Shown here piece after piece: positions 1,091-33,591 of a stretch of DNA of 64,000 nt. The notes beneath the pieces were generated by a model. The model did no database searches, was not told the DNA's origin, and worked only from the letters and a program-made list of their open reading frames with translations. Source of the stretch: a bacterium (GTDB lineage: Bacteria > Patescibacteriota > Minisyncoccia > Phycocordibacterales > UBA6899); the NCBI GenBank assembly GCA_043756865.1, contig JAYUQG010000024.1:91259-155258 (forward strand), written 5' to 3'. Both the position numbers and the translations under genes were made by a program. Numbering within the stretch: the first letter of the stretch is position 1; each line of letters starts with the position of its first letter.

Positions 1091-1690
1091 ATGTTCACCT
1101 CTATTAAAGACACGAAGAAAGGTTTCACCCTGATTGAGCTTCTTGTGGTCATTGCGATCATCGGTATTCTCTCTTCAGTTGTGCTCGCATCGCTTTCAAC
1201 CGCGCGCCAAAAGTCACGTGACGCAAAGCGTATCTCTGACGTAGGGCAGATTCAGCTTGCGCTCGAACTCTTCTTCGACGCACAGCAGAGCTACCCACGA
1301 ACAACGCAGCTTGCAAGTACTGTAACGCAGGATGGAGGAGTGCTCGCTCTTACTGCCGCTCAATTTCTTCCTCAGACACCGGTTCCTCCAGCAGGTGGAA
1401 GTCCAAAGTATTTCTACCGCGGTCGTGTAAGCGCAGCGAATCCCCCCGGCATTGCTGATGAGTGTAATGCACTTGCAGAGACATCATGCACTTCGTACAT
1501 TGTTGCAGTCACGCTGGAGCGTGCGGACAACACCGTGCTGACAAGTGATGCCGACACTGACGCAAGTGCTTGGGTTGCCCATGCAGCTGGAGTGGTAGCA
1601 CAGTATGGTGAAGGAGGTGACATCTTTGGTGGCGCTGCAGCTTGTGGGGTCACTGGTGGTGCAGACCTTTGCTACGACATCTCACCGTAA
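1091..1690 (+). CDS. Type IV pilin (major pilin candidate)
   Basis: Class III signal peptide with prepilin processing motif KKGFTLIELLVVIAIIGIL. First pilin gene after the pilC-like gene. Confidence 0.8.
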   Translation: MFTSIKDTKKGFTLIELLVVIAIIGILSSVVLASLSTARQKSRDAKRISDVGQIQLALELFFDAQQSYPRTTQLASTVTQDGGVLALTAAQFLPQTPVPPAGGSPKYFYRGRVSAANPPGIADECNALAETSCTSYIVAVTLERADNTVLTSDADTDASAWVAHAAGVVAQYGEGGDIFGGAAACGVTGGADLCYDISP

Positions 1691-1776
1691 GCAACAGCGA
1701 ATCTTATTTGATTCCAACACAAGCCCAAGCGGGGCTTGTTTTGTTTCGGGCCACCAAGTATGTCTGAACACTCGAG

Positions 1777-2628
1777 GTGAGATGGTATACTGTGTTCCAC
1801 ATGACGTTGTATATTGGAGTTATATACTTTCTTGCTTTTCTTCTCGGAGCTACTATCGGGAGCTTTCTCAATGTGGTTATTTATCGTATGGGAAGTGGAG
1901 TGGGGTTGGGGGGAAGGTCAAAGTGTCTTTCCTGCGGGCGCGCACTCACCGTGCGCATGCTCATTCCGTTATTCTCGTATTTCTTCCAGAAGGGAAAATG
2001 TGTATTTTGTCGCACAAAAATTGCAGTACAGTATCCCGCTGTTGAATTGGCACTCGCTTCACTTTTCGTTGCTGTTGTAGTGTTGCGTGGATTTGACCCC
2101 CTGCTCGCCACTTGGGTTGAGGTGTTACGAGTATTGCTTGAAATGACCGTGTGGTCGGTTTTACTTGGGGTACTCGTGTATGATCTCAAGCATAAGATTA
2201 TTCCTGACAGATTTTCTGTCATGTTTGCGGTTACTTCAGGAATATTGTTGTTTGTCACTACGCAATTGCAGACACCATCCGTGCAATATATTCCATTCCT
2301 CAATACTACGCCTGCGTGGATTGATTGGGCGGCTGCCCCCCTTATTGCAATTCCGTTTGCGTTACTGTGGCTTCTCTCGGGTGGTCGCGCGATGGGGTTG
2401 GGTGACGCGAAACTTGCTTGGGGGATAGGGTGGTTTCTCGGTTTTTCAGGTGGCGTAACGGCGGTCATTCTCAGTTTTTGGATTGCATTCATCCCAAGTA
2501 TAGTGCTGTTGTTTCTTCGTGCAAAACACTTTACAATGAAAAGTGAGATTCCATTTGCACCCTTTCTTGTGCTCGGCACACTTGTCACTTATTTGTTTGG
2601 GGTCGACATACTCGCATGGACATTTTAG
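1777..2628 (+). CDS. pilD: Prepilin peptidase (A24 family, PilD-like)
   Basis: N-terminal CxxC..CxxC tetracysteine motif (CLSCGRAL..CVFCRT), multiple TM segments, acidic catalytic-loop region. Located inside the pilus locus. The start codon is uncertain. Confidence 0.75.
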   Translation: MRWYTVFHMTLYIGVIYFLAFLLGATIGSFLNVVIYRMGSGVGLGGRSKCLSCGRALTVRMLIPLFSYFFQKGKCVFCRTKIAVQYPAVELALASLFVAVVVLRGFDPLLATWVEVLRVLLEMTVWSVLLGVLVYDLKHKIIPDRFSVMFAVTSGILLFVTTQLQTPSVQYIPFLNTTPAWIDWAAAPLIAIPFALLWLLSGGRAMGLGDAKLAWGIGWFLGFSGGVTAVILSFWIAFIPSIVLLFLRAKHFTMKSEIPFAPFLVLGTLVTYLFGVDILAWTF

Positions 2629-2647
2629 GCGATTCGGTATTTATAAT

Positions 2648-3292
2648 ATGTACAAGAAACAGCCATACACACAGTCCCAGTCATTGGAGAAAGGATTTTC
2701 CCTGCTCGAACTTATTGTTGCCATTTCCATTTTTATTGTCCTTTCGAGTGCTTTTTTGATTAACTATAATTCGTTTAATAAGCGTATCAGTATTGATACA
2801 TTGGCACATCAGATAGGCCAGTGGGTTCGCGATGCTCAAGTTTCTGCAATGAGCGTGAAGCGGACCAGTGTTTCATCGACCGTATTTCCCGGATATGGGT
2901 TGCATTTTTCGACATTAACTCCCAACAAGTTCATCTTTTTTGCAGATTCCCTGACCGCAAATAATCAATATGATGCAGGTGTGGGAATATGCGGCAGCGC
3001 AACCACTGAATGTGAGCGTGAGGTGCAACTCCTGCAGGGGAATGTGCTTGAGGCGCTCTGCGGCGATGCTCCGTCGGGTGCCGCCATTACGGCAAAATGC
3101 GGACTACTCGATACTTCAGAAACATTTGATATTGTGTTCACGCGACCCAATCCTGATGCGGTAATTACTGGCGACCTTGGCGGGGCATCATTCCCCACAG
3201 CGTATTCTCGGGCACAAATTCATTTGCTTTCCCCTGCAGGACACCGACGTGTGGTGGAGGTGTGGACAACTGGCCAGGTATCAATCAGATAA
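2648..3292 (+). CDS. Pilin-like / pseudopilin (minor pilin candidate)
   Basis: The ATG at 2648 gives MYKKQPYTQSQSLEKGFSLLELIVAISIF, a prepilin N-terminus. The longer ORF from 2543 would overlap pilD. Confidence 0.65.
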   Translation: MYKKQPYTQSQSLEKGFSLLELIVAISIFIVLSSAFLINYNSFNKRISIDTLAHQIGQWVRDAQVSAMSVKRTSVSSTVFPGYGLHFSTLTPNKFIFFADSLTANNQYDAGVGICGSATTECEREVQLLQGNVLEALCGDAPSGAAITAKCGLLDTSETFDIVFTRPNPDAVITGDLGGASFPTAYSRAQIHLLSPAGHRRVVEVWTTGQVSIR

Positions 3293-3296
3293 TGCC

Positions 3297-3908
3297 ATGA
3301 AACCAAACGTTATAAAAAAAGCAGGAAAGAAGAATGGATTCACACTCATTGAGATGATTGTCTCGATGTCTATTTTTACCATCGCACTCCTCATTATCGT
3401 TGGAGCGCTTATCAGTCTTGAAAATGCGAGCAGGAAAGCCCGAACAGTGCGTATTGTGACTGACAACTTGAGTGCGGCCATCGACTCCATGTCGCGCAAT
3501 GTGCGCATGGGCACGTATTACCACTGTGGTTGCGTCGGCCCCTATACTACGCCGCTTAACTGCCCAATGACCGACGACACGGGAGGTGGTGGCGCGACAT
3601 GCTTGGCGTTCGAGAGCCAGCGTGGCGATCCATCTATTTCAACCGACCAATATATCTACCGCCTTTCAGGAAATCGCATAGAACGCTCAACAGATGGCGG
3701 AAGCACGTTTCTCGCGCTCACAGCTCCTGAGCTCGATGTAACAAACCTGCGTTTTTATGTCACGGGAACTGAGACAAGCAGCAATCAACCTTATGTGACA
3801 ATGATAGTTCGTGGCTCGGCGTCCACCACACCAAGGACGGCAACAGATTTTAATATTCAAACAACCATCGGCGAGCGAACCCCAAACTTCGACTTCACAG
3901 CACCGTAG
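3297..3908 (+). CDS. Pilin-like / pseudopilin (minor pilin candidate)
   Basis: The internal ATG at 3297 gives MKPNVIKKAGKKNGFTLIEMIVSMSIF, a prepilin N-terminus. The upstream part of the ORF overlaps the previous gene. Confidence 0.65.
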   Translation: MKPNVIKKAGKKNGFTLIEMIVSMSIFTIALLIIVGALISLENASRKARTVRIVTDNLSAAIDSMSRNVRMGTYYHCGCVGPYTTPLNCPMTDDTGGGGATCLAFESQRGDPSISTDQYIYRLSGNRIERSTDGGSTFLALTAPELDVTNLRFYVTGTETSSNQPYVTMIVRGSASTTPRTATDFNIQTTIGERTPNFDFTAP

Positions 3909-3910
3909 CC

Positions 3911-4510
3911 ATGAAATACTCAAATGCACATCACAAGGGTTTTACACTCATAGAGGCAGTGGTCTCCATTGCAATTTTAGCGTTTGCGGTCGGAGGTCCC
4001 ATGGCACTTTCCGCACAAAGTTTGCGTGCGTCGCGTGAGGCGCGTATCCAGCTGGAAGCTATACACATTGCAGAAGAGGGAATTGAGATTATTCATAACA
4101 TTCGTGACAATAATTCCGCAAAAGACGTTACGCTCACCCGCGATGCATGGATGTCATCCATACTGGGAACATGCGTAGGCGGTTGTATCGCGGATGTTAC
4201 TGACCACTCCGCTGGTGTATGGGGTCCAGCAGCACTTACTGCATGCCCCGCTGGTGACTGCAGTGTTGTAGGGCGCATTTACTATCATCCAACGTCATCA
4301 TTGTATCGACAACGCCAAATCGCGCTTGCGGCGCCGTGGGTGCCAACGGTGTTTACCCGCTCAATGACCGTTGCGGGCGTTGATGACGTGTCGAATCCTG
4401 TGCGACAGGTCGTGGTTACCTCAACGGTGACGTATCAGGGATATAATGGAGCCATCCGTACAATAAGCGTACGTCAGGATCTTTACAATTGGTTTCCTCG
4501 GCTCAACTGA
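3911..4510 (+). CDS. Pilin-like / pseudopilin (PilV-like minor pilin candidate)
   Basis: MKYSNAHHKGFTLIEAVVSIAILAF prepilin motif. Begins 2 nt after the previous gene ends. Confidence 0.65.
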   Translation: MKYSNAHHKGFTLIEAVVSIAILAFAVGGPMALSAQSLRASREARIQLEAIHIAEEGIEIIHNIRDNNSAKDVTLTRDAWMSSILGTCVGGCIADVTDHSAGVWGPAALTACPAGDCSVVGRIYYHPTSSLYRQRQIALAAPWVPTVFTRSMTVAGVDDVSNPVRQVVVTSTVTYQGYNGAIRTISVRQDLYNWFPRLN

Positions 4511-4516
4511 TACTTC

Positions 4517-5041
4517 ATGAAACACTTACGCACACAACTTGAGGATGAAAAACAAGGAGGATATATTCTTCTGCTCACCGTGCTCATTGTCAGCATTATT
4601 CTTGCAATCAGTTTCAGTATTTATGCACTCAGCATAAAGGAAGTAATTCTCGCATCGTTCCTTCGGGAATCAGAAAAGGCATTTACTGCAGCAGACCGTG
4701 CGGTGGAGTGTACAATCTATTGGGACCGTTCGTTCCCTCAGAATGGTTTACCCTACACTGCGTTTGCAACGTCAACAACTTGGGTAGATCCTGTTAATGT
4801 CAATACGGTTGTCTGTGACACCACCTCGCTTCCGCTCATTCCTTGGGATAACACCACAGGGAGAACTGCAACGAGGGGGATTACCACATTTACCATGCAG
4901 TATGTAGATGGTACGTGCGCTGATGTAACAGTCATCAAAGAAAACGGAGGAACAAACATCACCACCAATGGCTATAACAATTGCACACCCGGTGCAGCGC
5001 GAAGAACGCAGCGGACTATTCTGGTTGACAGTAACATTTAA
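4517..5041 (+). CDS. Pilus-associated hypothetical protein (PilX-like; N-terminal TM anchor)
   Basis: N-terminal hydrophobic helix with no canonical G-F-T-L-I-E prepilin motif. Last gene of the pilin run. Function inferred from context only. Confidence 0.4.
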   Translation: MKHLRTQLEDEKQGGYILLLTVLIVSIILAISFSIYALSIKEVILASFLRESEKAFTAADRAVECTIYWDRSFPQNGLPYTAFATSTTWVDPVNVNTVVCDTTSLPLIPWDNTTGRTATRGITTFTMQYVDGTCADVTVIKENGGTNITTNGYNNCTPGAARRTQRTILVDSNI

Positions 5042-5047
5042 CACTAA

Positions 5048-7156
<2,109 letters not shown>

Positions 7157-7253: not shown

Positions 7254-7547
7254 ATGAAGACCATGCTCACAAAAGATGACATCAGTAATCTGGCAGAACT
7301 CGCGCGACTTTCTATTTCTGACGAAGAAAAAGCACTTTTCGCAGAGCGTCTTGGTCCCGTACTTGCCTACGTATCCGAGGTAACCTCCGTTACTACCGAA
7401 GAAGATGCAGTGCCCCGTGTTGGTGCACTAAGAAATGTTATGCGCGAAGATGGCGCGCCCAGAGAAGGCGGAACCTTCACTGACCGTATCCTCACCAACG
7501 CTCCTGCAACCGAAGACGGGTATGTTAAAGTGCGTCAGATTTTCTAG
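7254..7547 (+). CDS. gatC: Asp-tRNA(Asn)/Glu-tRNA(Gln) amidotransferase subunit C
   Basis: 98 aa reading MKTMLTKDDISNLAELARLSISDEEKALFAERLGPVLAYV.., the GatC pattern. Immediately upstream of gatA. Confidence 0.8.
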   Translation: MKTMLTKDDISNLAELARLSISDEEKALFAERLGPVLAYVSEVTSVTTEEDAVPRVGALRNVMREDGAPREGGTFTDRILTNAPATEDGYVKVRQIF

Positions 7548-7557
7548 TTTTCCACCT

Positions 7558-8991
7558 ATGTCTATCGATATACACAATCTCACAATTAAAGATGCAAGTG
7601 TCGCGCTTCGCGATGGGGAATACACTTCGGTGCAATTGACCGAAGCAGTGCTTACTAATGCAAAAAAAGAAAATCCAGAAATCAATGCGTATGCGGAAAT
7701 TTTTGAAGATGCGGTGGAGCTCGCCGCAAAGGCGGATGCACTGATTGCCCGCAAAGAGGGTGGACCAATGACCGGCATCCCTGTGTCTATAAAGGACAAT
7801 ATGCTCTATCAAGGCAAAGAATCTACTTCAGGCTCGATGATTTTGCGCGGACACAAAGCGACATACAATGGGACAGCAGTTGAAAAACTCATAGCCGGAG
7901 GAGCGGTCATTATTGGACGCACAAATATGGACGAGTTCGCCATGGGAAGCTCAACAGAGACGTGTGCCTATGGGCAGGTAAAGAACCCTATTGACCCCAC
8001 ACGCGTTCCTGGGGGCTCTTCTGGGGGTGCTGCTGCATCGCTTACTATGGGGGGCGCCCTTGGCTCCTACGGCTCGGATACGGGAGGGTCTATTCGTCAG
8101 CCTGCTGCGTTTTGCGGCATCGTTGGGCTAAAGCCCACCTACGGTGCAGTTTCGCGTTACGGACTTATGGCACTGGCGTCATCATTGGACCAGATTGGAC
8201 CATTCGGGAAAACCGTAGAAGACACGAGACTCCTTTTTGATGCAGTGCGTGGGCACGACCCCATGGATAGCACGTCAGTACCCGAAGCACATGCACTCCG
8301 CGCAAAACGCGATGCACCAAAGACGCTCACCATTGGTATTCCGGAGGCATTTATCGACATGGATGGAATGGATGCAGATGTACGTGAAAATTTTCGTGCA
8401 ACGATCGCCCGACTGGAAGCTTCAGGACACAAAATTAAACCTATTGACCTGCCGTCGATGCCGCGATCGCTTGCGGTGTACTACATCATTCAGCCCGCAG
8501 AAGCTTCCGCAAACCTTGCGCGGTATGATGGTATTCGTTTTGGATTCTCGAAATCCGCAGACCGTCTTCGTGAGGTGTATACAGAGACCCGCGGAGAAGG
8601 GTTTGGCAAAGAGGTCCGCCGACGCATCCTCCTTGGAACGTATGTACTTTCTGCAGGATATTACGATGCGTACTACAACAAAGCAGTTGCAGTTCGCCGC
8701 ATGATTATGGAGGAGATGAAGAAGGCGTTTAGTGAGGTAGATGTTATCGCTACACCCACCACCCCTTCTCCCGCATGGAAATTGGGCGCAATGAACGCGG
8801 ATCCACTCAAGATGTATCTCGAAGACATCTTCACTGTACCCGCCAATATTGCCGGTGTGCCAAGCATCTCCATTCCCTCAGGTGTGGTGACGCGCGACGG
8901 CGTGGTGCTTCCCGTGGGTATACAGTTCATGGCGGATGCATTCAACGAAGACGTGCTGTTTCAGGCGGGTTCTGCAGTTGAGCGTATATGA
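7558..8991 (+). CDS. gatA: Glutamyl-tRNA(Gln) amidotransferase subunit A (amidase signature family)
   Basis: Amidase signature GGSSGGAAASLTMGGALGSYGSDTGGSIRQPAAFCG. 477 aa. Follows gatC. Confidence 0.9.
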   Translation: MSIDIHNLTIKDASVALRDGEYTSVQLTEAVLTNAKKENPEINAYAEIFEDAVELAAKADALIARKEGGPMTGIPVSIKDNMLYQGKESTSGSMILRGHKATYNGTAVEKLIAGGAVIIGRTNMDEFAMGSSTETCAYGQVKNPIDPTRVPGGSSGGAAASLTMGGALGSYGSDTGGSIRQPAAFCGIVGLKPTYGAVSRYGLMALASSLDQIGPFGKTVEDTRLLFDAVRGHDPMDSTSVPEAHALRAKRDAPKTLTIGIPEAFIDMDGMDADVRENFRATIARLEASGHKIKPIDLPSMPRSLAVYYIIQPAEASANLARYDGIRFGFSKSADRLREVYTETRGEGFGKEVRRRILLGTYVLSAGYYDAYYNKAVAVRRMIMEEMKKAFSEVDVIATPTTPSPAWKLGAMNADPLKMYLEDIFTVPANIAGVPSISIPSGVVTRDGVVLPVGIQFMADAFNEDVLFQAGSAVERI

Positions 8992-9638
8992 CTATGTCAG
9001 ACAAACCCCCAGCAAAAGGACCACCAAAAGCAGCAGTAGGAGCGCCAAGCGGAAACAAGATATTTGCGGAGGTTGGAGGTATTCTCATAGCACTCCTCGT
9101 GTTTCTTCCAATCTTAAGCTCGCTTGCGGGGTCGCTCGGATTTCTTGGAGTGGTTGGTGACACGGTGGCTTCTGTTTTCTCTTATGTAAAGATGCTCGCT
9201 ACGGTTATTTCAATGGTTGCATTGATTATTGCTGTCTATTCGTTTATACGTATTTCAGAAATTGCCGCTGAGGAAACAAAGAAGCTTGGGCTCGCGCTCA
9301 ATTGGACAAGTGAACGAAAGCAGAAGAATGCACGTTGGGAGCGCGTAGAGACATACATGACTTCGCTGAATTCCTCTGACTGGAAAATTGCGATTCTTGA
9401 GGCTGATAACATTCTCGACCAAGTAGTAGAACGGATGGGCTACAAGGGGACCACGCTTGGGGAGCGCATGAAGCATATCGAAGCAAGTGATTTCCCGTAT
9501 CTTGAGGACGCATGGACTGCACATAAGACAAGAAATGCGATAGCGCATAAAGGGACTGACTATGAAGTATCCCGCAGTGATGCGGAGCAAACCATCAATA
9601 TCTATCACAGAATTTTTAAGGAGTTGGGGTATTTGTAA
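8988..9638 (+). CDS. Membrane-anchored protein with a C-terminal HEPN-like (DUF4145-type, Rx4H motif) domain
   Basis: The start overlaps the gatA stop (ATGA). Two or three N-terminal TM helices. The C-terminal domain carries AHKTRNAIAHKG, an R-x4-H HEPN-type motif. Confidence 0.55.
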   Translation: MTMSDKPPAKGPPKAAVGAPSGNKIFAEVGGILIALLVFLPILSSLAGSLGFLGVVGDTVASVFSYVKMLATVISMVALIIAVYSFIRISEIAAEETKKLGLALNWTSERKQKNARWERVETYMTSLNSSDWKIAILEADNILDQVVERMGYKGTTLGERMKHIEASDFPYLEDAWTAHKTRNAIAHKGTDYEVSRSDAEQTINIYHRIFKELGYL

Positions 9639-9646
9639 AGCCCAGT

Positions 9647-10756
9647 TTATTCTGCCCATGGACTCGCCAATGGTTCGCCTACAAAAACACCTTGTGCAGG
9701 AAACGCAACGCTTTTCCAGTATGACTCAATCAGCGTCTCTCCTTGAGTGTAGTGAGTAATCACTATTTGTGGGTCAGGAAATTTTTTTTTCAGCGCGTAC
9801 GGTTCGCTTACTGTGCCGTAACTCCCTGTTACTCCAGCTTCAATAAATTCAAGTATGCTCATTTGCGAAGTGTCAGTCAGCATTCCACCAAATGAGGTTA
9901 GGTGGTCTGCTACTGCCCCATTGGGAAATTTGTTTGACGAAATGTTGGGGACCTTGGTTAGACCCTGAAAATAAAAGAGTGCATCGGTAGTATTAGAAAT
10001 GTAATTTTCTGAGGATGCTTTTGTTGATGTGGCACTCTCGGGTTGCGCAGAAAGAAGTTTCACGTGCACTTGCTGGCTAATTGCATGCCCAAGCATCGAT
10101 TTTGAATAATTATTTGCACGCATGCTTCTTATTTGATCTGATGTTTTCATAATGTACGCACTCCCAAATGGTTGTGAATTGTCAGAGGCGACCCCCCGCT
10201 CAATTAATTTTTTTACGCTCGAGACTGATTTTCCCGCGAGCATCATTGATGGCCTAAACCCAAAATCTGTATATGGTGCCAGAGACAGAGAATTATAATA
10301 GGGAAGTGCATCGGGCACATTCCGAGGATCAACGCACGCCATATCGTTGTACCCGAGAGATATTGCGGAGGTAATTCCGTTGCAATTAACGCGTGAGGGG
10401 TTTGTCCACGCAACGGCAATAATCTGAACTGTCTTTGGCAATGCAGCGTTTACTTCCTGAGATAATGCACCGAATTCCTCAGCAGTTAATTGATTTTTTA
10501 GGGGGAGGCTAACATGGACAATATTTTCATTCGGTATACCCCTTTTTGTTTGGTAGTACCATCCAATCTCGATACTTTCGGGGTCATTTTTGTTAATAAC
10601 AATTCCGGTGTTTTGACTGGTTACTTCCCTGTGAAACGTGAGCAATTTCTTTACTGGGGAGATTGTAACCCCACCTTCACTTCGGAAATGTCCAACAAAG
10701 TAGGTACTTACAAACATATAAGCAAGGACAAAAAGAAATATTTCTTTTCTAGGCAT
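9647..10756 (-). CDS. Hypothetical secreted/membrane-anchored protein
   Basis: 369 aa from the first ATG, with an N-terminal signal/TM segment (IFLFVLAYMFVSTYFV). No motif recognised. Confidence 0.5.
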   Translation of the reverse strand: MPRKEIFLFVLAYMFVSTYFVGHFRSEGGVTISPVKKLLTFHREVTSQNTGIVINKNDPESIEIGWYYQTKRGIPNENIVHVSLPLKNQLTAEEFGALSQEVNAALPKTVQIIAVAWTNPSRVNCNGITSAISLGYNDMACVDPRNVPDALPYYNSLSLAPYTDFGFRPSMMLAGKSVSSVKKLIERGVASDNSQPFGSAYIMKTSDQIRSMRANNYSKSMLGHAISQQVHVKLLSAQPESATSTKASSENYISNTTDALFYFQGLTKVPNISSNKFPNGAVADHLTSFGGMLTDTSQMSILEFIEAGVTGSYGTVSEPYALKKKFPDPQIVITHYTQGETLIESYWKSVAFPAQGVFVGEPLASPWAE

Positions 10757-11092
10757 GCATACAGAATAGCATAGCAAGAAAGCAGGCTTAGCCTAAGGGA
10801 ACTCTCGGCTACCGCCGCGGGTGATATTCAATCTCGACGACTTGATAATGGATATCCTTTCTTCAGCAGACGGGACTCTAGCATAAGAGGCGCAACACCC
10901 ATTTCCAATTTTCAGAACGAGACTCTGTCGCGAATATTTTGCTTGCCGCCGAGCGCAAAATTTCTCGACCCCAGCTCGTGGTTTCGCCTGCTGACGAAAC
11001 ATCGCTCCGCTTTTCGAGTCCCTCGTTGAGTGCGGCAGCGCACTCAACACCGCCGTGCAAAAATACCACCTTACGGTGGCTTTTTGTATTTG

Positions 11093-11166
11093 CGCGGCGG
11101 ACGGGACTCGAACCCGCAACCTCCCACGTGACAGGCGGGTGCTCTAACCAGTTGAGCTACCACCGC
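11093..11166 (-). tRNA. tRNA-Asp (anticodon GTC)
   Basis: The reverse complement folds as a cloverleaf. Acceptor stem GCGGTGG/CCGCCGC, anticodon loop CTGTCAC, T-loop GGTTCGAGTCC. CCA is not encoded. Confidence 0.85.
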
Positions 11167-11195
11167 AAATATTATTTTCTGGCCACCTTGACCAG

Positions 11196-11272
11196 TGGTG
11201 TCGACGGGAGGGAACGATCCTCCGACCTCGGGCTTATGAGTCCCGCGCTCTAACCAACTGAGCTACGTCGAC
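11196..11272 (-). tRNA. tRNA-Met-like (anticodon CAT; could be elongator Met, Ile2 or initiator)
   Basis: The reverse complement reads GTCGACGTAGCTCAGTTGGTTAGAGCGCGGGACTCATAAGCCCG..CGTCGACACCA. Perfect 7-bp acceptor stem. CCA is encoded. The T-loop is atypical. Confidence 0.75.
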
Positions 11273-11400
11273 ATATAAACATGCGTGCTCCAGTCACACC
11301 AATGAGCACAGTGGATTTATAGCATATTCTGTCTCAAAATCAAACTTGGATGTCATTTGCATGCGGTTAGGAATTAATCACCAGTCCTAAGTTCACAGAC

Positions 11401-11424
11401 AGGACTCGGTCACGAGTTACTAAG
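11401..11424. repeat. 24-nt repeat related to the repeats next to tRNA-Gln (36153-36186 and 37301-37331, reverse complement)
   Basis: aggactcggtcacgagttactaag matches the reverse complement of cttagtgactcgtgaccgagtcc at 36153-36175 at 22 of 24 positions. Confidence 0.5.
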
Positions 11425-11550
11425 TCTTTTGGTGCGAAGGCCACCAAAAGCCCAAGTACTCCCGACCCCGACTCGCCCGTCTCACAAGGCTTCGACATGG
11501 CTCCGTCTTTCGATTCCTGATGAAAGTGCCATTGGGCGCTTTTTTGTAAT

Positions 11551-11623
11551 TGTTGCGGGGACAGGAATCGAACCTGTGCCTGAAGGTTATGAGCCTTCCG
11601 AGCTACCGCTGCTCCACCCCGCT
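11551..11623 (-). tRNA. tRNA-Met-like (anticodon CAT) with a mismatched 1-72 pair (possible initiator)
   Basis: The reverse complement reads AGCGGGGTGGAGCAGCGGTAGCTCGGAAGGCTCATAACCTTCAGGCACAGGTTCGATTCCTGTCCCCGCAA. Classic TTCGATT T-loop. Positions 1 and 72 form an A-A mismatch. Confidence 0.75.
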
Positions 11624-11748: not shown

Positions 11749-12369
11749 ATGAATTTGTTCTCACATATTGTGCATTCTCCACTCATAAATATCTCCCTCG
11801 GTTTTATGCTTTCTATGGTATGGGTAATCTTTGCATTTTCACACGTACAGGCATGGCAATCGACGGGCGAATTCGCGCTCCTCGCATTCTGCCTTTCGGA
11901 GACTTTGCAGGCAATGTTTTTTTTGTTTCGTAAGGTTCCCGAAACAGTATCTGTCGACCCCTTTGACTGGCTTGTTGCAGGAGGGGGAACTTTTGCGCCA
12001 CTGCTTTTTCGTCCGGGGGGAGAGGTGCTGTTTGCCCATGGCGACAAAATATTGCTTATTGGCGTATTTTTGCAAATTGCCGCATTAATTTCTTTGAATA
12101 GGAGTTTTGCAATTGTTGCTGCCAAGCGCTCGGTGAAAACAAAAGGCATGTATAGGATTGTGCGCCATCCTATGTATGCGAGTTATATATTCCTTTTGTT
12201 TGGCTACATACTGTTCAACGCCTCAATCGTCAATGTTTTTTTGCTTATGATGGCGTTTCTGTTTATGTATCTGCGGATTGAACAAGAAGAAAAGCACTTA
12301 CTGCAGGATTCGCTCTATCTTGCCTTCACAAAAAAAACAAAGTGGCGACTGATTCCTTTCGTGTATTAG
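11749..12369 (+). CDS. Isoprenylcysteine carboxyl methyltransferase / phospholipid methyltransferase family membrane protein
   Basis: Multi-TM protein with C-terminal signature RIVRHPMYASYIFLLFGYIL..EEKHLL, the RHPxY..EE motif of the ICMT/PEMT family. Confidence 0.65.
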   Translation: MNLFSHIVHSPLINISLGFMLSMVWVIFAFSHVQAWQSTGEFALLAFCLSETLQAMFFLFRKVPETVSVDPFDWLVAGGGTFAPLLFRPGGEVLFAHGDKILLIGVFLQIAALISLNRSFAIVAAKRSVKTKGMYRIVRHPMYASYIFLLFGYILFNASIVNVFLLMMAFLFMYLRIEQEEKHLLQDSLYLAFTKKTKWRLIPFVY

Positions 12370-12438: not shown

Positions 12439-12514
12439 GCCGTTTTAGCTCAGCTGGTAGAGCATTTCCATGGTAAGGAAAAGGTCCCCGGTTCGATTCC
12501 GGGAAACGGCTCCA
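12439..12514 (+). tRNA. tRNA-Thr (anticodon GGT)
   Basis: GCCGTTTTAGCTCAGCTGGTAGAGCATTTCCATGGTAAGGAAAAGGTCCCCGGTTCGATTCCGGGAAACGGCTCCA. Perfect acceptor stem. CCA is encoded. Confidence 0.85.
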
Positions 12515-12537
12515 TGCTAGTATCTCGCTACTAGTTT

Positions 12538-12610
12538 GCCGCCTTAGCTCATCTGGTAGAGCAACGGTATCGTAAATCGTAGGTGCCCAGTTCGAGTCTG
12601 GGAGGCGGCT
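12538..12610 (+). tRNA. tRNA-Thr (anticodon CGT)
   Basis: GCCGCCTTAGCTCATCTGGTAGAGCAACGGTATCGTAAATCGTAGGTGCCCAGTTCGAGTCTGGGAGGCGGCT. Anticodon loop ATCGTAA. Confidence 0.85.
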
Positions 12611-12613
12611 CAA

Positions 12614-13093: not shown

Positions 13094-13120
13094 AAAAGCC
13101 GCGCAATGCGCGGCTTGTGG
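13094..13120. terminator. Bidirectional rho-independent terminator between convergent genes
   Basis: aaaaagccgcgcaatgcgcggctt is a perfect GC-rich hairpin, A-rich on one side and T-rich on the other. Confidence 0.7.
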
Positions 13121-13612
13121 CTATGTTCTGAGAACTCGTGGAATATCCCCCGAGTAAATACGCCTGAGAATCAGGGGAATGAGCAATGCGTTACTGAGAA
13201 GAAAAAGCACAGTGCCCAACCATCGGCAGAGATCGCCGATACTCACGATGTTTACGCCCCCCTCGAAGGGGTAGTCAAGCCATTTGCCCCACCACCGAAT
13301 TGCGGAACCGATGGCTCCACGCGGAATCTCGTCTTCCCAATTCGGAAAGTCGATACGCACTCGGTCTGCAAGTATGAGCAGTTTGCCATCATCTACGAAC
13401 TGGCGAGGTGTTCCTGCGTTGGTCGTGATAATTCCGGGTATATCGACAATGACCGGCATGACCCCGTCATTTACTTCCACCACTATGCCGTTCATCACAA
13501 CTCCCCATGCATTGAGCGCAAGCCCAATGACGACAAGGAGAGTGAGCGCGGTATCAACGAAACCCCATTTGGTTCGCTCGCGACGAAGATTCAGTTCTTG
13601 AGAGAGTTCCAT
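13121..13612 (-). CDS. Hypothetical membrane protein
   Basis: 163-aa protein-like sequence with a TM helix. Convergent with the NUDIX gene across a shared terminator. The overlapping + strand frame at 13106-13741 is Cys/His/Arg-rich junk. Confidence 0.5.
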   Translation of the reverse strand: MELSQELNLRRERTKWGFVDTALTLLVVIGLALNAWGVVMNGIVVEVNDGVMPVIVDIPGIITTNAGTPRQFVDDGKLLILADRVRIDFPNWEDEIPRGAIGSAIRWWGKWLDYPFEGGVNIVSIGDLCRWLGTVLFLLSNALLIPLILRRIYSGDIPRVLRT

Positions 13613-13741
13613 GTGTACTCCTTAGAATGGAAAGATGTGTCAGCCAAGTATAATAATAGTACAAAAAAACTGAATTGTCAAACACGCAAGTCAGTAACAA
13701 GGAGGACATGCAGTGTTCGTCTAGGTATTTGCTATACTCGC

Positions 13742-14227
13742 ATGATGAATACGTACACCGTGCGCACCGCAACAAAAAAAGATATAGACGCGCTTATTCC
13801 ACTGCAAAAAGAGATGGCAAAATATCACCACGCGCTCGATTCCATCTGGAATAAGGGAGCAAAGGATGATTCTGTTTGGCGTGAAATGCTTCTTGGGTTT
13901 TTTAAAAGAGGAAAAAATTTTTCCTTTCTCGTGCTTGAGTGTAATGGAAAAATAGTTGGTTATGCGAACGCAGAAATAAAGGTCGCGAGTCCCGCATATG
14001 CAGTCAAGTTGCTCGGGCATATAGGTAGTGTGTATGTGCAAAAACCCTATCGTCGCTCAGGTCTTGCAAGTATGGCAGTTGACCACTCCATGGACTGGTT
14101 TAAGAAAAATAAGGTGACATGGGTTACGCTTCAGGTTGATACAGACAATCCTTTGGGCACTAAAACGTGGAAGAAACTTGGATTTGAGGAGTGGCGCTTG
14201 GTGTTACGCAAGAAGCTACGTACATAG
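13742..14227 (+). CDS. GNAT family N-acetyltransferase
   Basis: The internal ATG of long ORF 13106..14227 gives a 161-aa protein with a GNAT-like acetyl-CoA binding core (VQKPYRRSGLASMAV). Confidence 0.65.
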   Translation: MMNTYTVRTATKKDIDALIPLQKEMAKYHHALDSIWNKGAKDDSVWREMLLGFFKRGKNFSFLVLECNGKIVGYANAEIKVASPAYAVKLLGHIGSVYVQKPYRRSGLASMAVDHSMDWFKKNKVTWVTLQVDTDNPLGTKTWKKLGFEEWRLVLRKKLRT

Positions 14228-20169: not shown

Positions 20170-20260
20170 GCAACACTCCAAGGAACACTGTCCTCATTCA
20201 ACCAAGTTTACAAAAGGAGTCAACCCGAGATAAAGGTTGCTATTTGCTATACTGGATTTC

Positions 20261-21145
20261 ATGAGTGACCAACCACACCCACATCAAACCCGTATTGCCG
20301 AAATTGAAAACGTAATGCTTACGGGAGATTTCTGGAGTGATAAAGAAAAGGCGCATGCGCTCATTAAGGAGCTTCAGGATTTAAAGACTGAAGTCGAAGG
20401 GGGAGGAAAATATGACAAGGCAAATGCGATTATCACCATCTTCTCTGGCGCCGGTGGCGACGACTCCGAAGATTTCTCCGCAATGTTGGTGCGCATGTAT
20501 TTCAAATACTGCGAACGCAAAGGTTGGGGATACGATGTACTGCACGCCCACGACAATGACCATGGGGGATATCGCAATATCACATTTGAGGTAGTGGGCA
20601 AAGCATCATACGGTGAACTCAAGAATGAATCCGGTGTGCATCGACTGGTGCGCATCTCGCCGTTTAATTCAAATGCAAAACGACACACCTCCTTCTCAAT
20701 GGTCGAGGTCATACCGAAATTCAAAAAAGGTGAAATTGAAGCACTTCCAGAAGCAGAAGTGCGTTTCGAGTACTCGCGCTCTGGTGGCGCAGGTGGGCAG
20801 AACGTAAACAAGCGCGAGACCGCAGTGCGTGCCGTGCATGAGCCAACAGGACTTGCCGTACATGTGTCTGCCGAGCGCTCGCAGCTCCAAAACAAAGAGC
20901 GCGCACTCGAGATTCTCGCTGCGAAGGTTTTTCATTTGCGCGAATCACTCACTCAGGCGGAAAAAGAAAAGATGTATGTATCCAAAACCACAAAGGTGGA
21001 ATGGGGCAATCAGATACGCTCATATGTCCTTCATCCCTACAAGATGGTAAAGGATCATCGCACCGATGTAGAGACATCGAAGGTTGATGACGTACTTCTG
21101 CACGGGGAGCTCGATGAGTTTATTGAGGCCGAGCGAGGGTTGTAG
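20261..21145 (+). CDS. prfB: Peptide chain release factor 2
   Basis: SPF motif (VRISPFNSNAKRHTSF), GGQ motif (SGGAGGQNVNKRETAV) and FSGAGG region. Short N-terminus. No CTTTGAC frameshift site seen. Confidence 0.85.
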   Translation: MSDQPHPHQTRIAEIENVMLTGDFWSDKEKAHALIKELQDLKTEVEGGGKYDKANAIITIFSGAGGDDSEDFSAMLVRMYFKYCERKGWGYDVLHAHDNDHGGYRNITFEVVGKASYGELKNESGVHRLVRISPFNSNAKRHTSFSMVEVIPKFKKGEIEALPEAEVRFEYSRSGGAGGQNVNKRETAVRAVHEPTGLAVHVSAERSQLQNKERALEILAAKVFHLRESLTQAEKEKMYVSKTTKVEWGNQIRSYVLHPYKMVKDHRTDVETSKVDDVLLHGELDEFIEAERGL

Positions 21146-30150: not shown

Positions 30151-32034
30151 ATGACACAAGACACCGCACTTACAATTATGAAAACCGGGGCAAATATTTT
30201 CCTCACTGGTGAGCCGGGGTCTGGAAAAACACATACCGTGAACGCATATGTGCGGTACCTGAAGGAGCATGGTATTCAACCTTCCATCACTGCGTCGACG
30301 GGGATTGCCGCAACACATGTCGGAGGTATGACGATTCACTCATGGAGCGGTATTGGGATACGTCGCGCACTCTCCGAATATGACCTTGATGCAATGGCCT
30401 CGAACGAGGGGCTGGTCCGCCGACTCGCGAAAGCCAAAGTGCTTATCATCGACGAAATCTCGATGCTTGATGGCACGGTGCTCGACATGGTCGACCAAGT
30501 CTCGCGCACGATAAGGATGAAACAAGAACCCTTTGGCGGGCTACAGGTGATTTTGGTGGGTGACTTCTTTCAGCTCCCGCCGATTGCAAAGCAAGGCGAA
30601 CGTGCGCAGTTTGCGTTTGATTCAAAGGCGTGGAAACTCGCCAATCCAATTATTTGCTATCTTTCTGAACAGCATCGCCAAGAAGACACGGCGTTTCTCT
30701 CGACCTTGGGTGCGATACGTCGCGGGGAATTGGAGGACAGTGTCTTTGAGTATATTGGTGAGCGTAACGTGGCACCGGGTGAACACCCACTCGATATTCC
30801 CCAACTGTACACACACAATATCGACGTCGACAAAAAGAACACCATAGAACTAGAAAAGCTCACCAGCGCACCTGTGGTCTTTCTGATGGAAACAAAGGGG
30901 AGTACGGGGCGGGTAGAACAGTTGGTAAAAGGATGCCTCTCGCCAGAGGAATTGGTCTTGAAGGAAGGTGCGTCTGTCATGTTTACCAAGAACAGCTTTG
31001 ATTCAGGTTATGTAAATGGCACACTCGGTACGGTCATCGGGTTTGATGCTGACAACGGATTTCCTATCGTGGAAACACGTGATGGCGATGAGATAACGGC
31101 GTTTCCGTCGGAGTGGGCAGTGGACGATAGTGGCAAGGTCCTCGCGACCATCACGCAAGTGCCACTACGACTCGCATGGGCTATCACGGTGCACAAAAGC
31201 CAAGGACTCTCGCTGGACGCGGCGGTCATGGACCTCTCACGTGCGTTTGAGTACGGTCAGGGGTATGTCGCACTCTCACGTGTTCGTGAATTCGCTGGTC
31301 TGCATATTCTTGGTATCAACCAGCGCGCGTTTGAGGTACATCCACTCGTCCTTGAACGCGATCAAGCATTCCGCGAACGCTCCGACGATGCAGAGCGTGG
31401 TTTTGAAGACATGCCACCGTCTGATCTCCTGGCACTCCACAATAATTTTATTACTGCTATGGGGGGAACGATTCATGCCGTCGCGCTTGATGAAGCGACA
31501 AAAGCCCCGAAGATTTCTACATATGAACAAACACTCGCACTGGTCGCAGACGGAAAAACTCTTGCAGAGATTATCGCACTTCGCGGGATGACCGAGGGTA
31601 CAATTGTGAAACATCTCGAAGAGCTCGCGCTTTCGGGCAATCTTCCGCCCCTCGAGATGGCACAATTCACAGGACTCGAGCAGCGTGGGCTCGACGATAT
31701 ACGGGAAGCCATCCTCGGCGTAGAAGGAGGTTACTTAAAGCCTATTTATGAAGCGCTCGATGAAGCCTATTCTTATGAAATGATTCGACTTGTGCGCTTA
31801 GCCACAGGCGCTCTGGCAAAGCGTAAAGAAGAGAGCACAGAGCAAAAAGTCGCTCGTAAAGAACCAGCCACTGCGAAGCCAGACAATCTTGGTGCCAAAT
31901 GGTCAACGGAAGAGGAGTCACGTCTGAGAGAAATGTTTCAATCGGGAATGAAGACTGCGCACATCGCCCGCGAGCTCAAGCGTCAATCGGGAGGTATCCG
32001 TGCGCGACTCAAGAAGCTCGGGTTGCTTGAATAG
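30151..32034 (+). CDS. PIF1/RecD-family ATP-dependent helicase with a C-terminal HTH domain
   Basis: Walker A GEPGSGKTH, AAA_30-like core (LIIDEISMLDG), UvrD_C-like region and C-terminal HTH_40-like segment. Confidence 0.75.
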   Translation: MTQDTALTIMKTGANIFLTGEPGSGKTHTVNAYVRYLKEHGIQPSITASTGIAATHVGGMTIHSWSGIGIRRALSEYDLDAMASNEGLVRRLAKAKVLIIDEISMLDGTVLDMVDQVSRTIRMKQEPFGGLQVILVGDFFQLPPIAKQGERAQFAFDSKAWKLANPIICYLSEQHRQEDTAFLSTLGAIRRGELEDSVFEYIGERNVAPGEHPLDIPQLYTHNIDVDKKNTIELEKLTSAPVVFLMETKGSTGRVEQLVKGCLSPEELVLKEGASVMFTKNSFDSGYVNGTLGTVIGFDADNGFPIVETRDGDEITAFPSEWAVDDSGKVLATITQVPLRLAWAITVHKSQGLSLDAAVMDLSRAFEYGQGYVALSRVREFAGLHILGINQRAFEVHPLVLERDQAFRERSDDAERGFEDMPPSDLLALHNNFITAMGGTIHAVALDEATKAPKISTYEQTLALVADGKTLAEIIALRGMTEGTIVKHLEELALSGNLPPLEMAQFTGLEQRGLDDIREAILGVEGGYLKPIYEALDEAYSYEMIRLVRLATGALAKRKEESTEQKVARKEPATAKPDNLGAKWSTEEESRLREMFQSGMKTAHIARELKRQSGGIRARLKKLGLLE

Positions 32035-32262: not shown

Positions 32263-33591
32263 TTAAGCTACTTCGTCGATTTTCTCAAGCGGGCGATCAT
32301 TGATTGCACGTTCAAGTGAACTCAAACGTTTGTAGATTGAGAGCATTTCGACAATAGTCGGCCAATTGAGGACCAAATATTGAAAAGAACTTTCTACTCT
32401 TCCGAATGCGCGCACAATCTGCTGCATGACTCCAAGGGTGAATCCTGCAAGTATCGCCTCTTTGGAAAGCAGGGTTGGTGCGAGTGCGATGTAGGGAACG
32501 AGTGCACCCGCCTGTAGATAGCTATACCGCACCATGTTGAAGTACATGTAGTGAAAGTACATCCGAAAGTAGTTTGTTCTCACGTGACCAAACAGCTCAC
32601 GCAATGTCTTCGGTTGTGCCCGAGTTTCGTCCTCTTCGCCGAATACTAGCTCCTTGCGGTAAGCGTGCTCCACTCGTTGGTTGTGGAATTTCAATGTCGG
32701 CAGATAATAACCCGTCAGTGCGAGCACAATCGTACCGAAAACAGACCAGCAGACTGCAATAATCACCAATCCATGGGCGATCGGTCCGATGACGGGTATC
32801 TCCGAGACAAACTTCGTCGAGAGCATCCAAAGAATCGGCAAGAACGCAATGAGCGTCATCACCGCATCAAGCAGTCCCGCACCCAATCCTTCCATGATGT
32901 CTGCAAAACGCATCGTGTCGTCTTGAATACGTTGGGACGCTCCTTCGATGTGACGGACTTTGCTCCATTTCCCAGTATAGTACTCGTTCATCGCGGTGCG
33001 CCACCGGAAGTTGTAGTGCTGGATGAAATAGTTTCCCAGCGTTCTCACAATCACAAACACCGCTGCAATGGTGAAAAAGGTGGCCAGACGTCCGTAGTAC
33101 TCAGTATTTTCGATAGTTCCGGGGTTCGCAAACATGGTTTGAATCATGTTGTAAAACCCACCGAACCATTCGTTAATCATGACATCGAGTTGCACCTGAA
33201 ACCACGTGAAAAAGATAATCACAGCGGAACCAAGAAGCGACCACTTCAGCCATTTGTGTGAACTACAGAAGTACCAGCAGGCAATAAATATTCCGTAGCA
33301 AGGGATGAGGAATTGGTATGCCCAAAAAGTCACCGCGCTTCCGAGCGCACTTATCTGGGATTGCACCAACTTTACTCGCTCGGGGTCTGTCTTTGCACCG
33401 AATCGCGCCGCTTCCTTTTGTAGCGTTTCGAGTAATCCGTAGTCGAGTTGAGCAAAGCCGAACCATTGACCAACGGAATACATTTGACCTGTTTGCTCTC
33501 CTAATGTGAACCAAAACACCAAGCAGGCAAGTGCCCATATCACAAATGAGCCAAAGAAGAGGAGCGGCCTCGGAAAGAAGGAATTAAACAT
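32263..33591 (-). CDS. sbmA: SbmA/BacA-family peptide (microcin/antimicrobial peptide) transporter
   Basis: 442 aa, collinear with enterobacterial SbmA along its whole length by eye: MF.SFFP, RWRTAMNEYY, HIEGA.QR.Q.DTMRFA, NQRVE.AYRKELV.GE.D.TRA, FHYMYFN, SIYKRL. Confidence 0.85.
   Translation of the reverse strand: MFNSFFPRPLLFFGSFVIWALACLVFWFTLGEQTGQMYSVGQWFGFAQLDYGLLETLQKEAARFGAKTDPERVKLVQSQISALGSAVTFWAYQFLIPCYGIFIACWYFCSSHKWLKWSLLGSAVIIFFTWFQVQLDVMINEWFGGFYNMIQTMFANPGTIENTEYYGRLATFFTIAAVFVIVRTLGNYFIQHYNFRWRTAMNEYYTGKWSKVRHIEGASQRIQDDTMRFADIMEGLGAGLLDAVMTLIAFLPILWMLSTKFVSEIPVIGPIAHGLVIIAVCWSVFGTIVLALTGYYLPTLKFHNQRVEHAYRKELVFGEEDETRAQPKTLRELFGHVRTNYFRMYFHYMYFNMVRYSYLQAGALVPYIALAPTLLSKEAILAGFTLGVMQQIVRAFGRVESSFQYLVLNWPTIVEMLSIYKRLSSLERAINDRPLEKIDEVA

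Follow-up and report, generated by a model that had tools for sequence, protein, structure and literature searches.

A membrane-anchored HEPN protein encoded directly after gatA in Paceibacteria and its possible role as a membrane-tethered ribonuclease

We analyzed a 64-kb stretch of bacterial DNA (contig JAYUQG010000024.1, positions 91,259 to 155,258; "the window" below means this whole stretch) with respect to the gene that directly follows gatA. The list of open reading frames (ORFs) and the translation confirmed that this gene is a real ORF of 216 amino acids (aa) at 8988-9638 on the plus strand, and we call it the HEPN gene after the domain at the C-terminus of its product. The boundaries of the preceding ligA, gatC, and gatA genes were taken from gene calls on an identical contig (L086), and their identities were taken from Pfam matches. 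The locus is arranged as follows.

5114-7156, plus strand: ligA, NAD-dependent DNA ligase, which opens the block ligA-gatC-gatA-X (Pfam DNA_ligase_aden, OB, HHH, and BRCT; upstream in most related loci)
7263-7547, plus strand: gatC (Pfam GatC, E 5.6e-13; 94 aa in the L086 gene call)
7558-8991, plus strand: gatA, amidase subunit of the tRNA-dependent amidotransferase, 477 aa (Pfam Amidase, E 6.6e-145; start from the L086 gene call)
8988-9638, plus strand: the HEPN gene after gatA, maximal ORF 216 aa, likely 214 aa from the ATG at 8994 (ORF list, invariance of M3, gene calls)
9647-10756 (ORF to 10777), minus strand: convergent downstream gene, 369-376 aa, without a Pfam family (ORF list, Pfam, gene call)

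The HEPN gene is present in one copy within the window, and a search of the 64 kb for a second copy found none. The convergent gene, whose stop codon is 8 nucleotides (nt) from that of the HEPN gene, is the border of the conserved block and lies outside the system. An earlier interpretation of this DNA from its letters alone (the sequence-only reading) had placed the start of the HEPN gene in an ATGA overlap with the gatA stop. The first ATG (8988) does overlap the gatA stop codon TGA (8989-8991) in this way, but M3 is the start position in 34 of 34 close homologues, in which it is invariant (alignment A1), and gene callers begin the identical protein on L086 at the second ATG, giving 214 aa. 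The likelier start is therefore the ATG at 8994, 2 nt past the gatA stop. The junction between gatA and the HEPN gene is tight whichever ATG is used.

The layout of the protein was derived from a hydropathy scan and a full-length AlphaFold model with a predicted local distance difference test score (pLDDT) of 84.7. Its parts, including the transmembrane (TM) helices, are listed here.

8988-9059, plus strand: Lys/Pro-rich N-terminal tail, residues 1-24, disordered (sequence, low pLDDT), probably cytoplasmic by the positive-inside rule
9060-9134, plus strand: TM helix 1 (TM1), approximately residues 25-49, variable in sequence (hydropathy; model helix 23-49)
9177-9248, plus strand: TM helix 2 (TM2), approximately residues 64-87, conserved (hydropathy; model helix 54-125; conservation in alignment A1)
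9297-9635, plus strand: HEPN domain, residues 104-216, with helix 1 at 104-124, helix 2 at 129-149, an insert at 150-171, helix 3 at 172-191, and helix 4 at 196-213
9399-9407, plus strand: E138-A139-D140 in helix 2, containing the candidate HEPN acidic residue (alignment A2; feature defined in PMC3710099)
9522-9548, plus strand: H179-K-T-R182-N183-A-I-A-H187, the Rx4H motif at the end of helix 3 (sequence; conservation)

The chain begins with a short tail; TM1 and TM2 follow, separated by an outside loop, and a long helix then connects TM2 to the four-helix HEPN domain. TM2 runs unbroken into the first HEPN helix in the model, and only 4 residues form the loop between the helices that contain TM1 and TM2. 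The sequence-only reading had predicted a membrane-anchored protein with two or three N-terminal TM helices; both the hydropathy scan and the model support the anchoring and two of these helices, but neither contains a third. The same plan is shared by 149 diverse representatives of the family, in which the segment between TM1 and TM2 ranges from a few residues to approximately 480. In the long orthologues this segment carries SH3_3/GW-like repeats (Pfam), which are typical of extracellular wall-binding domains. From the SH3-like repeats in the loop and the positive charge of the tail, we infer that the loop is outside and that the tail and the HEPN domain are both cytoplasmic.

By the published definition of the superfamily (PMC3710099), a HEPN domain is an up-down bundle of four helices in which an insert separates helices 2 and 3. 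Helix 2 contributes an acidic residue, and helix 3 ends in an Rx4-6H motif whose arginine is followed by a polar residue (N, D, or H). The C-terminal domain of the window protein shows the bundle, the insert between helices 2 and 3, an R-x4-H motif, a polar asparagine, and, in helix 2, a candidate for the acidic residue (D140), and a domain-only AlphaFold model of residues 103-216 reached a pLDDT of 92.7 and a predicted template modeling score (pTM) of 0.85. Residues 178-189 (9519-9554) read AHKTRNAIAHKG, and the domain includes the string AHKTRNAIAH. The core of the motif, R182-N183-A-I-A-H187, sits in the helix spanning residues 172-191, with the polar asparagine directly following the arginine and H179 as an extra invariant histidine. 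The pattern H..RN...H was found in 268 of 269 family members. Across 100 diverse representatives, which share 28-67% identity with the query, W117, W132, D140, G154, H179, R182, N183, and H187 are invariant and E138 is nearly so (alignment A2). Long six-frame ORFs of the window contain ten R[NHDQ]xxxH strings, so the R-x4-H string by itself is not beyond chance; it is the invariance and the fold that carry the argument.

Many of these 100 members also match HEPN models in Pfam, all below the gathering threshold. HEPN_Swt1 (PF18731) matches 46 of them individually, with a best whole-protein E-value of 1.5e-4, followed by HEPN_RiboL-PSP (17 members), pEK499_p136 (12), DUF4145 (PF13643; six, best E 0.0044), and HEPN_Cthe2314 (five). 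Because three lines converge, namely the fold (with the HEPN protein 1wol as the top Foldseek match of the domain-only model), the defining features, and the sequence matches of the family, we consider it very likely that the domain has the HEPN fold. The C-terminal HEPN-like domain with R-x4-H described in the sequence-only reading is thus supported by motif invariance, by the predicted structure, and by the sub-threshold matches. Its designation as DUF4145-type came close as regards the motif (RN..AH type), but the nearest model is HEPN_Swt1 (46 members vs. six for DUF4145).

To describe the distribution of the family, we used a profile search that covered 1.84 billion cluster representatives, clustered at 50% identity. 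This search returned 2721 clusters at E ≤ 1e-3, of which 532 reach E ≤ 1e-30. In a separate scan of one genome per GTDB species, relatives were present in at least 592 genomes. Among the matches listed, 80 of 80 loci belong to Patescibacteria (Nomura-, Vogel-, Taylor-, Zambryski-, Campbell-, and Lloydbacteria and Paceibacterota). Many of the relatives' records carry the unconfirmed label "uncultured Candidatus Saccharibacteria", given by bulk submission. As far as seen, the family is confined to Paceibacteria. Its members are named in databases as hypothetical proteins only, no Pfam or NCBIfam model covers them, and a literature search on HEPN, gatB, and ribonucleases (RNases) in the candidate phyla radiation (CPR) found no paper on the family.

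The linkage of the gene to gatA, which the sequence-only reading had taken from a single junction, proved to be general: gatA is directly upstream on the same strand in all 78 loci with upstream DNA among the matches listed, usually with gatC and ligA before it. Counted from the gatA stop, the first ATG follows after a median of 15 nt; this distance is ≤30 nt in 59 loci, the two genes overlap in 9, and the long orthologues with loop inserts occupy the same place after gatA. The downstream genes show no conservation, their largest cluster comprising 5 of 61, and a conserved downstream partner, sought among the relatives' loci, was not found; the HEPN gene is therefore the last member of the ligA-gatC-gatA-X block. 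Over 73 genomes, GatA has a mean pairwise identity of 57%, LigA one of 56%, and the HEPN domain one of 49%. The identity matrices of GatA and the HEPN domain correlate with r = 0.50 (Mantel p = 0.001), and those of LigA and GatA correlate with r = 0.47. Because these identity levels and the matrix correlation are like those of its neighbors, the gene appears to descend vertically under strong constraint, and it looks like a core, vertically inherited gene of the Paceibacteria (Parcubacteria, within Patescibacteria/CPR).

We also considered where gatB lies. As the sequence-only reading had stated, no gatB follows gatA: the next gene is convergent, and tblastn with two GatB queries found no gatB in the 64-kb window (one query was a Bacillus subtilis sequence, and the result was confirmed with a database-derived GatB). 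In three independent loci from relatives, gatB follows obg (L089, 6334-8764; L090, 7030-9440; L049, 1-1762), and in L049 the order is obg-gatB immediately upstream of ligA-gatC-gatA-X. The GatB of Paceibacteria is full-length with both Pfam domains. Since the window holds neither obg nor gatB, gatB presumably lies elsewhere in the source genome. The idea that the HEPN gene is a remnant or a replacement of gatB was rejected, as its product has neither GatB_N (PF02934) nor GatB_Yqey (PF02637) and no GatB among its fold matches, and an intact gatB exists elsewhere. By its own terms, the sequence-only reading would be refuted if gatB lay elsewhere and the gene were conserved beside gatA in all relatives as a housekeeping membrane protein lacking a nuclease motif; the first two of these were found, but the motif is invariant.

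Our favored reading, to which we give about even weight, takes the gene product to be a conserved HEPN endoribonuclease that is tethered to the membrane and acts on its inner face in a housekeeping or regulatory role. Its parts differ in strength. The HEPN domain is probably an active RNase, judging from its motif, and we are fairly confident that the protein is not a toxin. The domain is predicted to be a metal-independent endoribonuclease that probably dimerizes, as other HEPN RNases do, and would build one active site from two R-N-x3-H motifs; cleavage would be expected to leave 2',3'-cyclic phosphate ends. The membrane tether would limit cleavage to RNA at the inner membrane face. Signal transmission is possible, as one rigid helix would reach from TM2 through HEPN helix 1, and along it an alteration of the membrane or of the outside loop could be relayed to the RNase domain. 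The role would be one in RNA turnover or processing rather than in cell killing. The sequence-only reading had named a tRNA- or rRNA-processing factor among its candidates; RNA processing is retained here as a better reading than a toxin, given the invariant motif, but a specific link to tRNA substrates ranks among the unlikely rivals.

Several results weigh against an RNase of this kind. The window protein has no HEPN match in Pfam even at E ≤ 10, DUF4145 included, and none in NCBIfam, and no curated HEPN model reached its threshold with the window protein or with any of the 100 members. The Pfam check for HEPN or DUF4145 suggested by the sequence-only reading therefore gave nothing for the window protein itself, but it did give sub-threshold HEPN matches for members of the family. 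Sequence and profile searches of PDB sequences returned TM or coiled-coil noise alone. In Foldseek searches, the top match of the domain-only model was the HEPN protein 1wol (probability 0.99) with E-values that were not significant, and the full-length model matched mostly designed helical bundles, with YutE as the sole hint and E-values that were again not significant. Conservation of the motif is the one line of evidence that points to RNase activity. The synteny does not prove a functional tie to gatCA, because the block also holds the functionally unrelated ligA; ligA-gatCA(B) is an old gene order that is also present in Bacillus and Mycobacterium. Finally, a sensing role cannot apply to the window protein as it might to the long orthologues, because the window protein has almost no outside loop.

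A more ambitious version of the favored reading would make the protein a counterpart of Ire1, that is, a class-wide, near-universal, signal-responsive membrane RNase of Paceibacteria. Through its outside loop, which in many lineages carries SH3-like repeats that would bind the wall or a host, it would link the condition of the cell surface or attachment to a host to the cleavage of specific RNAs. These could include tRNAs served by GatCAB, with whose genes the HEPN gene would have remained co-transcribed across the class. We regard this version as unlikely.

The alternative that survives best, while still improbable, is that the HEPN domain is non-catalytic and serves as an RNA-, nucleotide-, or protein-binding module, for example, one that holds GatCAB or some other partner at the membrane or regulates it there. 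There are precedents in HEPN domains that have lost RNase activity, namely those of Swt1 and Roquin and the substrate-binding domains of nucleotidyltransferases. Non-catalytic HEPN domains typically lose the Rx4-6H motif (PMC3710099), but in the present family the arginine, asparagine, and histidine of the motif, the extra histidine, and the aspartate of helix 2 are all invariant in 100 diverse members. A fusion to GatA was also sought with Pfam among the long family members, and none was found; these proteins have SH3-like loop inserts instead.

An RNase that acts on the tRNAs of the transamidation pathway would explain why the slot after gatA has been kept across the class. We nevertheless think that this explanation has a small chance of being correct. 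LigA, which has no tRNA link, is as conserved in the block; gatB has moved next to obg, so that operon position is no strict guide to function; and a membrane anchor has no obvious rationale for an enzyme of tRNA quality control.

Most bacterial HEPN proteins belong to conflict systems (PMC3710099), and the sequence-only reading had suggested a toxin or an abortive-infection (Abi) effector, here a membrane-tethered HEPN RNase that would kill or arrest the cell upon phage attack or stress. This suggestion was not supported, and we consider it very unlikely. No MNT antitoxin or other defense gene is adjacent, no PADLOC-DB family matched at E ≤ 10, and the gene, single-copy in the window, never leaves its housekeeping block in the 78 informative loci and evolves slowly and in step with GatA and LigA. 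It is also practically absent from viral contigs: in a search of 2.9 million of them, we obtained just two weak partial matches, to an unrelated 421-aa protein. The presence of the string HKxRNxIAH in that protein is a point in favor of a toxin.

The 421-aa protein is encoded on an IMG/VR contig (L092, 5047-6312, plus strand) and carries the motif (AINHKLRNAIAHYKYEY) near its C-terminus. It is otherwise unrelated to the gatA-linked family and is possibly an Abi-type HEPN protein.

The least probable alternative, a membrane pore or channel in which the helical domain would serve oligomerization and not RNA cleavage, shares TM helices and a HEPN-type helical domain with Csx28, the TM plus HEPN-like accessory protein of Cas13b, and we give it hardly any weight.

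The closest known counterparts are bacterial membrane-associated HEPN proteins of the Abi2/Swt1 clade, which likewise carry a catalytic-type HEPN domain, predicted to be cytoplasmic, C-terminal to a TM segment (PMC3710099). They have the R-N-x3-H motif in common with the gatA-linked family, for which the clade's HEPN_Swt1 (PF18731) is the best, albeit sub-threshold, Pfam model. The group described there is known from Proteobacteria such as Salmonella, and its one conserved TM helix comes after an all-alpha globular domain (PMC3710099), whereas the gatA-linked family has two TM helices and a variable outside loop, is found in Paceibacteria so far, and occupies a fixed place in a housekeeping operon. 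Anantharaman et al. (2013, PMC3710099) proposed that bacterial TM-linked HEPN groups degrade RNA in response to stimuli, but none of their three groups matches the gatA-linked family in architecture or lineage. DUF4145 (PF13643) shares the RN..AH-type motif and includes one TM-linked subgroup, whose one N-terminal TM helix bears a conserved WP signature (PMC3710099), unlike the two TM helices of the window protein.

More distant comparisons can be made with Ire1 and RNase L (KEN domain) and with C6orf70, in which an outside (lumenal) part and a TM segment are likewise combined with a cytoplasmic HEPN RNase and which are core rather than conflict genes. The activation of Ire1 by dimerization is a likely model for the gatA-linked family too. 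Ire1/KEN proteins differ in that they have a kinase domain, which is absent from the gatA-linked family, in the circular permutation of KEN, and in their unrelated sequences, and the window protein is almost without an outside domain. RNase Y and RNase E (PMC7029143, PMC8096251) are functional analogs, being housekeeping, membrane-localized endoribonucleases that initiate decay, but they have different, metal-dependent catalytic domains (HD/KH in RNase Y, S1/DNase I-like in RNase E) and no homology to the family. HepT/MntA systems (HEPN-MNT; DUF86; PDB 5yep, 7ae2, and 8xdj) are soluble, patchily distributed, and mobile, with an MNT nucleotidyltransferase as antitoxin partner; in contrast, the gatA-linked family is membrane-anchored, class-wide, and vertically inherited, and it has no MNT neighbor, since gatA lies upstream and the family-less convergent gene lies downstream.

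TM-anchored HEPN proteins are thus an already known kind, and the gatA-linked family among them is undescribed, with no curated model and no paper found. To our knowledge, almost all known bacterial HEPN proteins are toxins or defense effectors that come and go, and we know of HEPN enzymes fixed in core functions mainly from eukaryotes (Ire1, Las1). The family stands out among bacterial HEPN proteins by its two-TM architecture, its lineage-wide distribution as a core gene, and its constant position within a housekeeping operon. It presents a core-like HEPN protein (single-copy in the window, slow-evolving, in a constant operon, and membrane-anchored, with an outside domain in many lineages) in one of the largest groups of uncultured ultra-small bacteria. 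Should the protein prove to be an active RNase, it could serve these organisms, whose RNA metabolism is essentially uncharted, as their main endoribonuclease or as a regulatory one. A new family model could be built from the present data.

Several other features of the window were recorded. Just upstream of ligA is a type IV pilus-like cluster (1091-5041, plus strand) with four ORFs that carry prepilin N-methylation motifs (1091-1690, 2543-3292, 3177-3908, and 3911-4510) and a prepilin peptidase (1777-2628). This cluster is likewise found ahead of ligA in the Lloydbacteria loci L001-L003 and in L086. Downstream of the block, there are two small tRNA clusters, one at 11092-11623 on the minus strand (Asp, Met, Met) and one at 12439-12611 on the plus strand (Thr, Thr), with a PEMT/ICMT-like methyltransferase gene (11749-12369) between them. 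A 373-aa ORF at 13106-14227 (plus strand) has a GNAT acetyltransferase domain as its C-terminal third (residues 218-362); its N-terminal part is without a family and may reflect an over-long ORF call. The class-I release factor ORF at 20237-21145 (plus strand) is merely 302 aa long, and its PCRF match begins at profile position 95, so that its N-terminal domain looks shortened; a prfB-type CTTTGAC frameshift site was not found nearby. Finally, a PIF1-like helicase with a C-terminal HTH_40 domain (30151-32034, plus strand) adjoins an SbmA/BacA-family transporter (32263-33591, minus strand).

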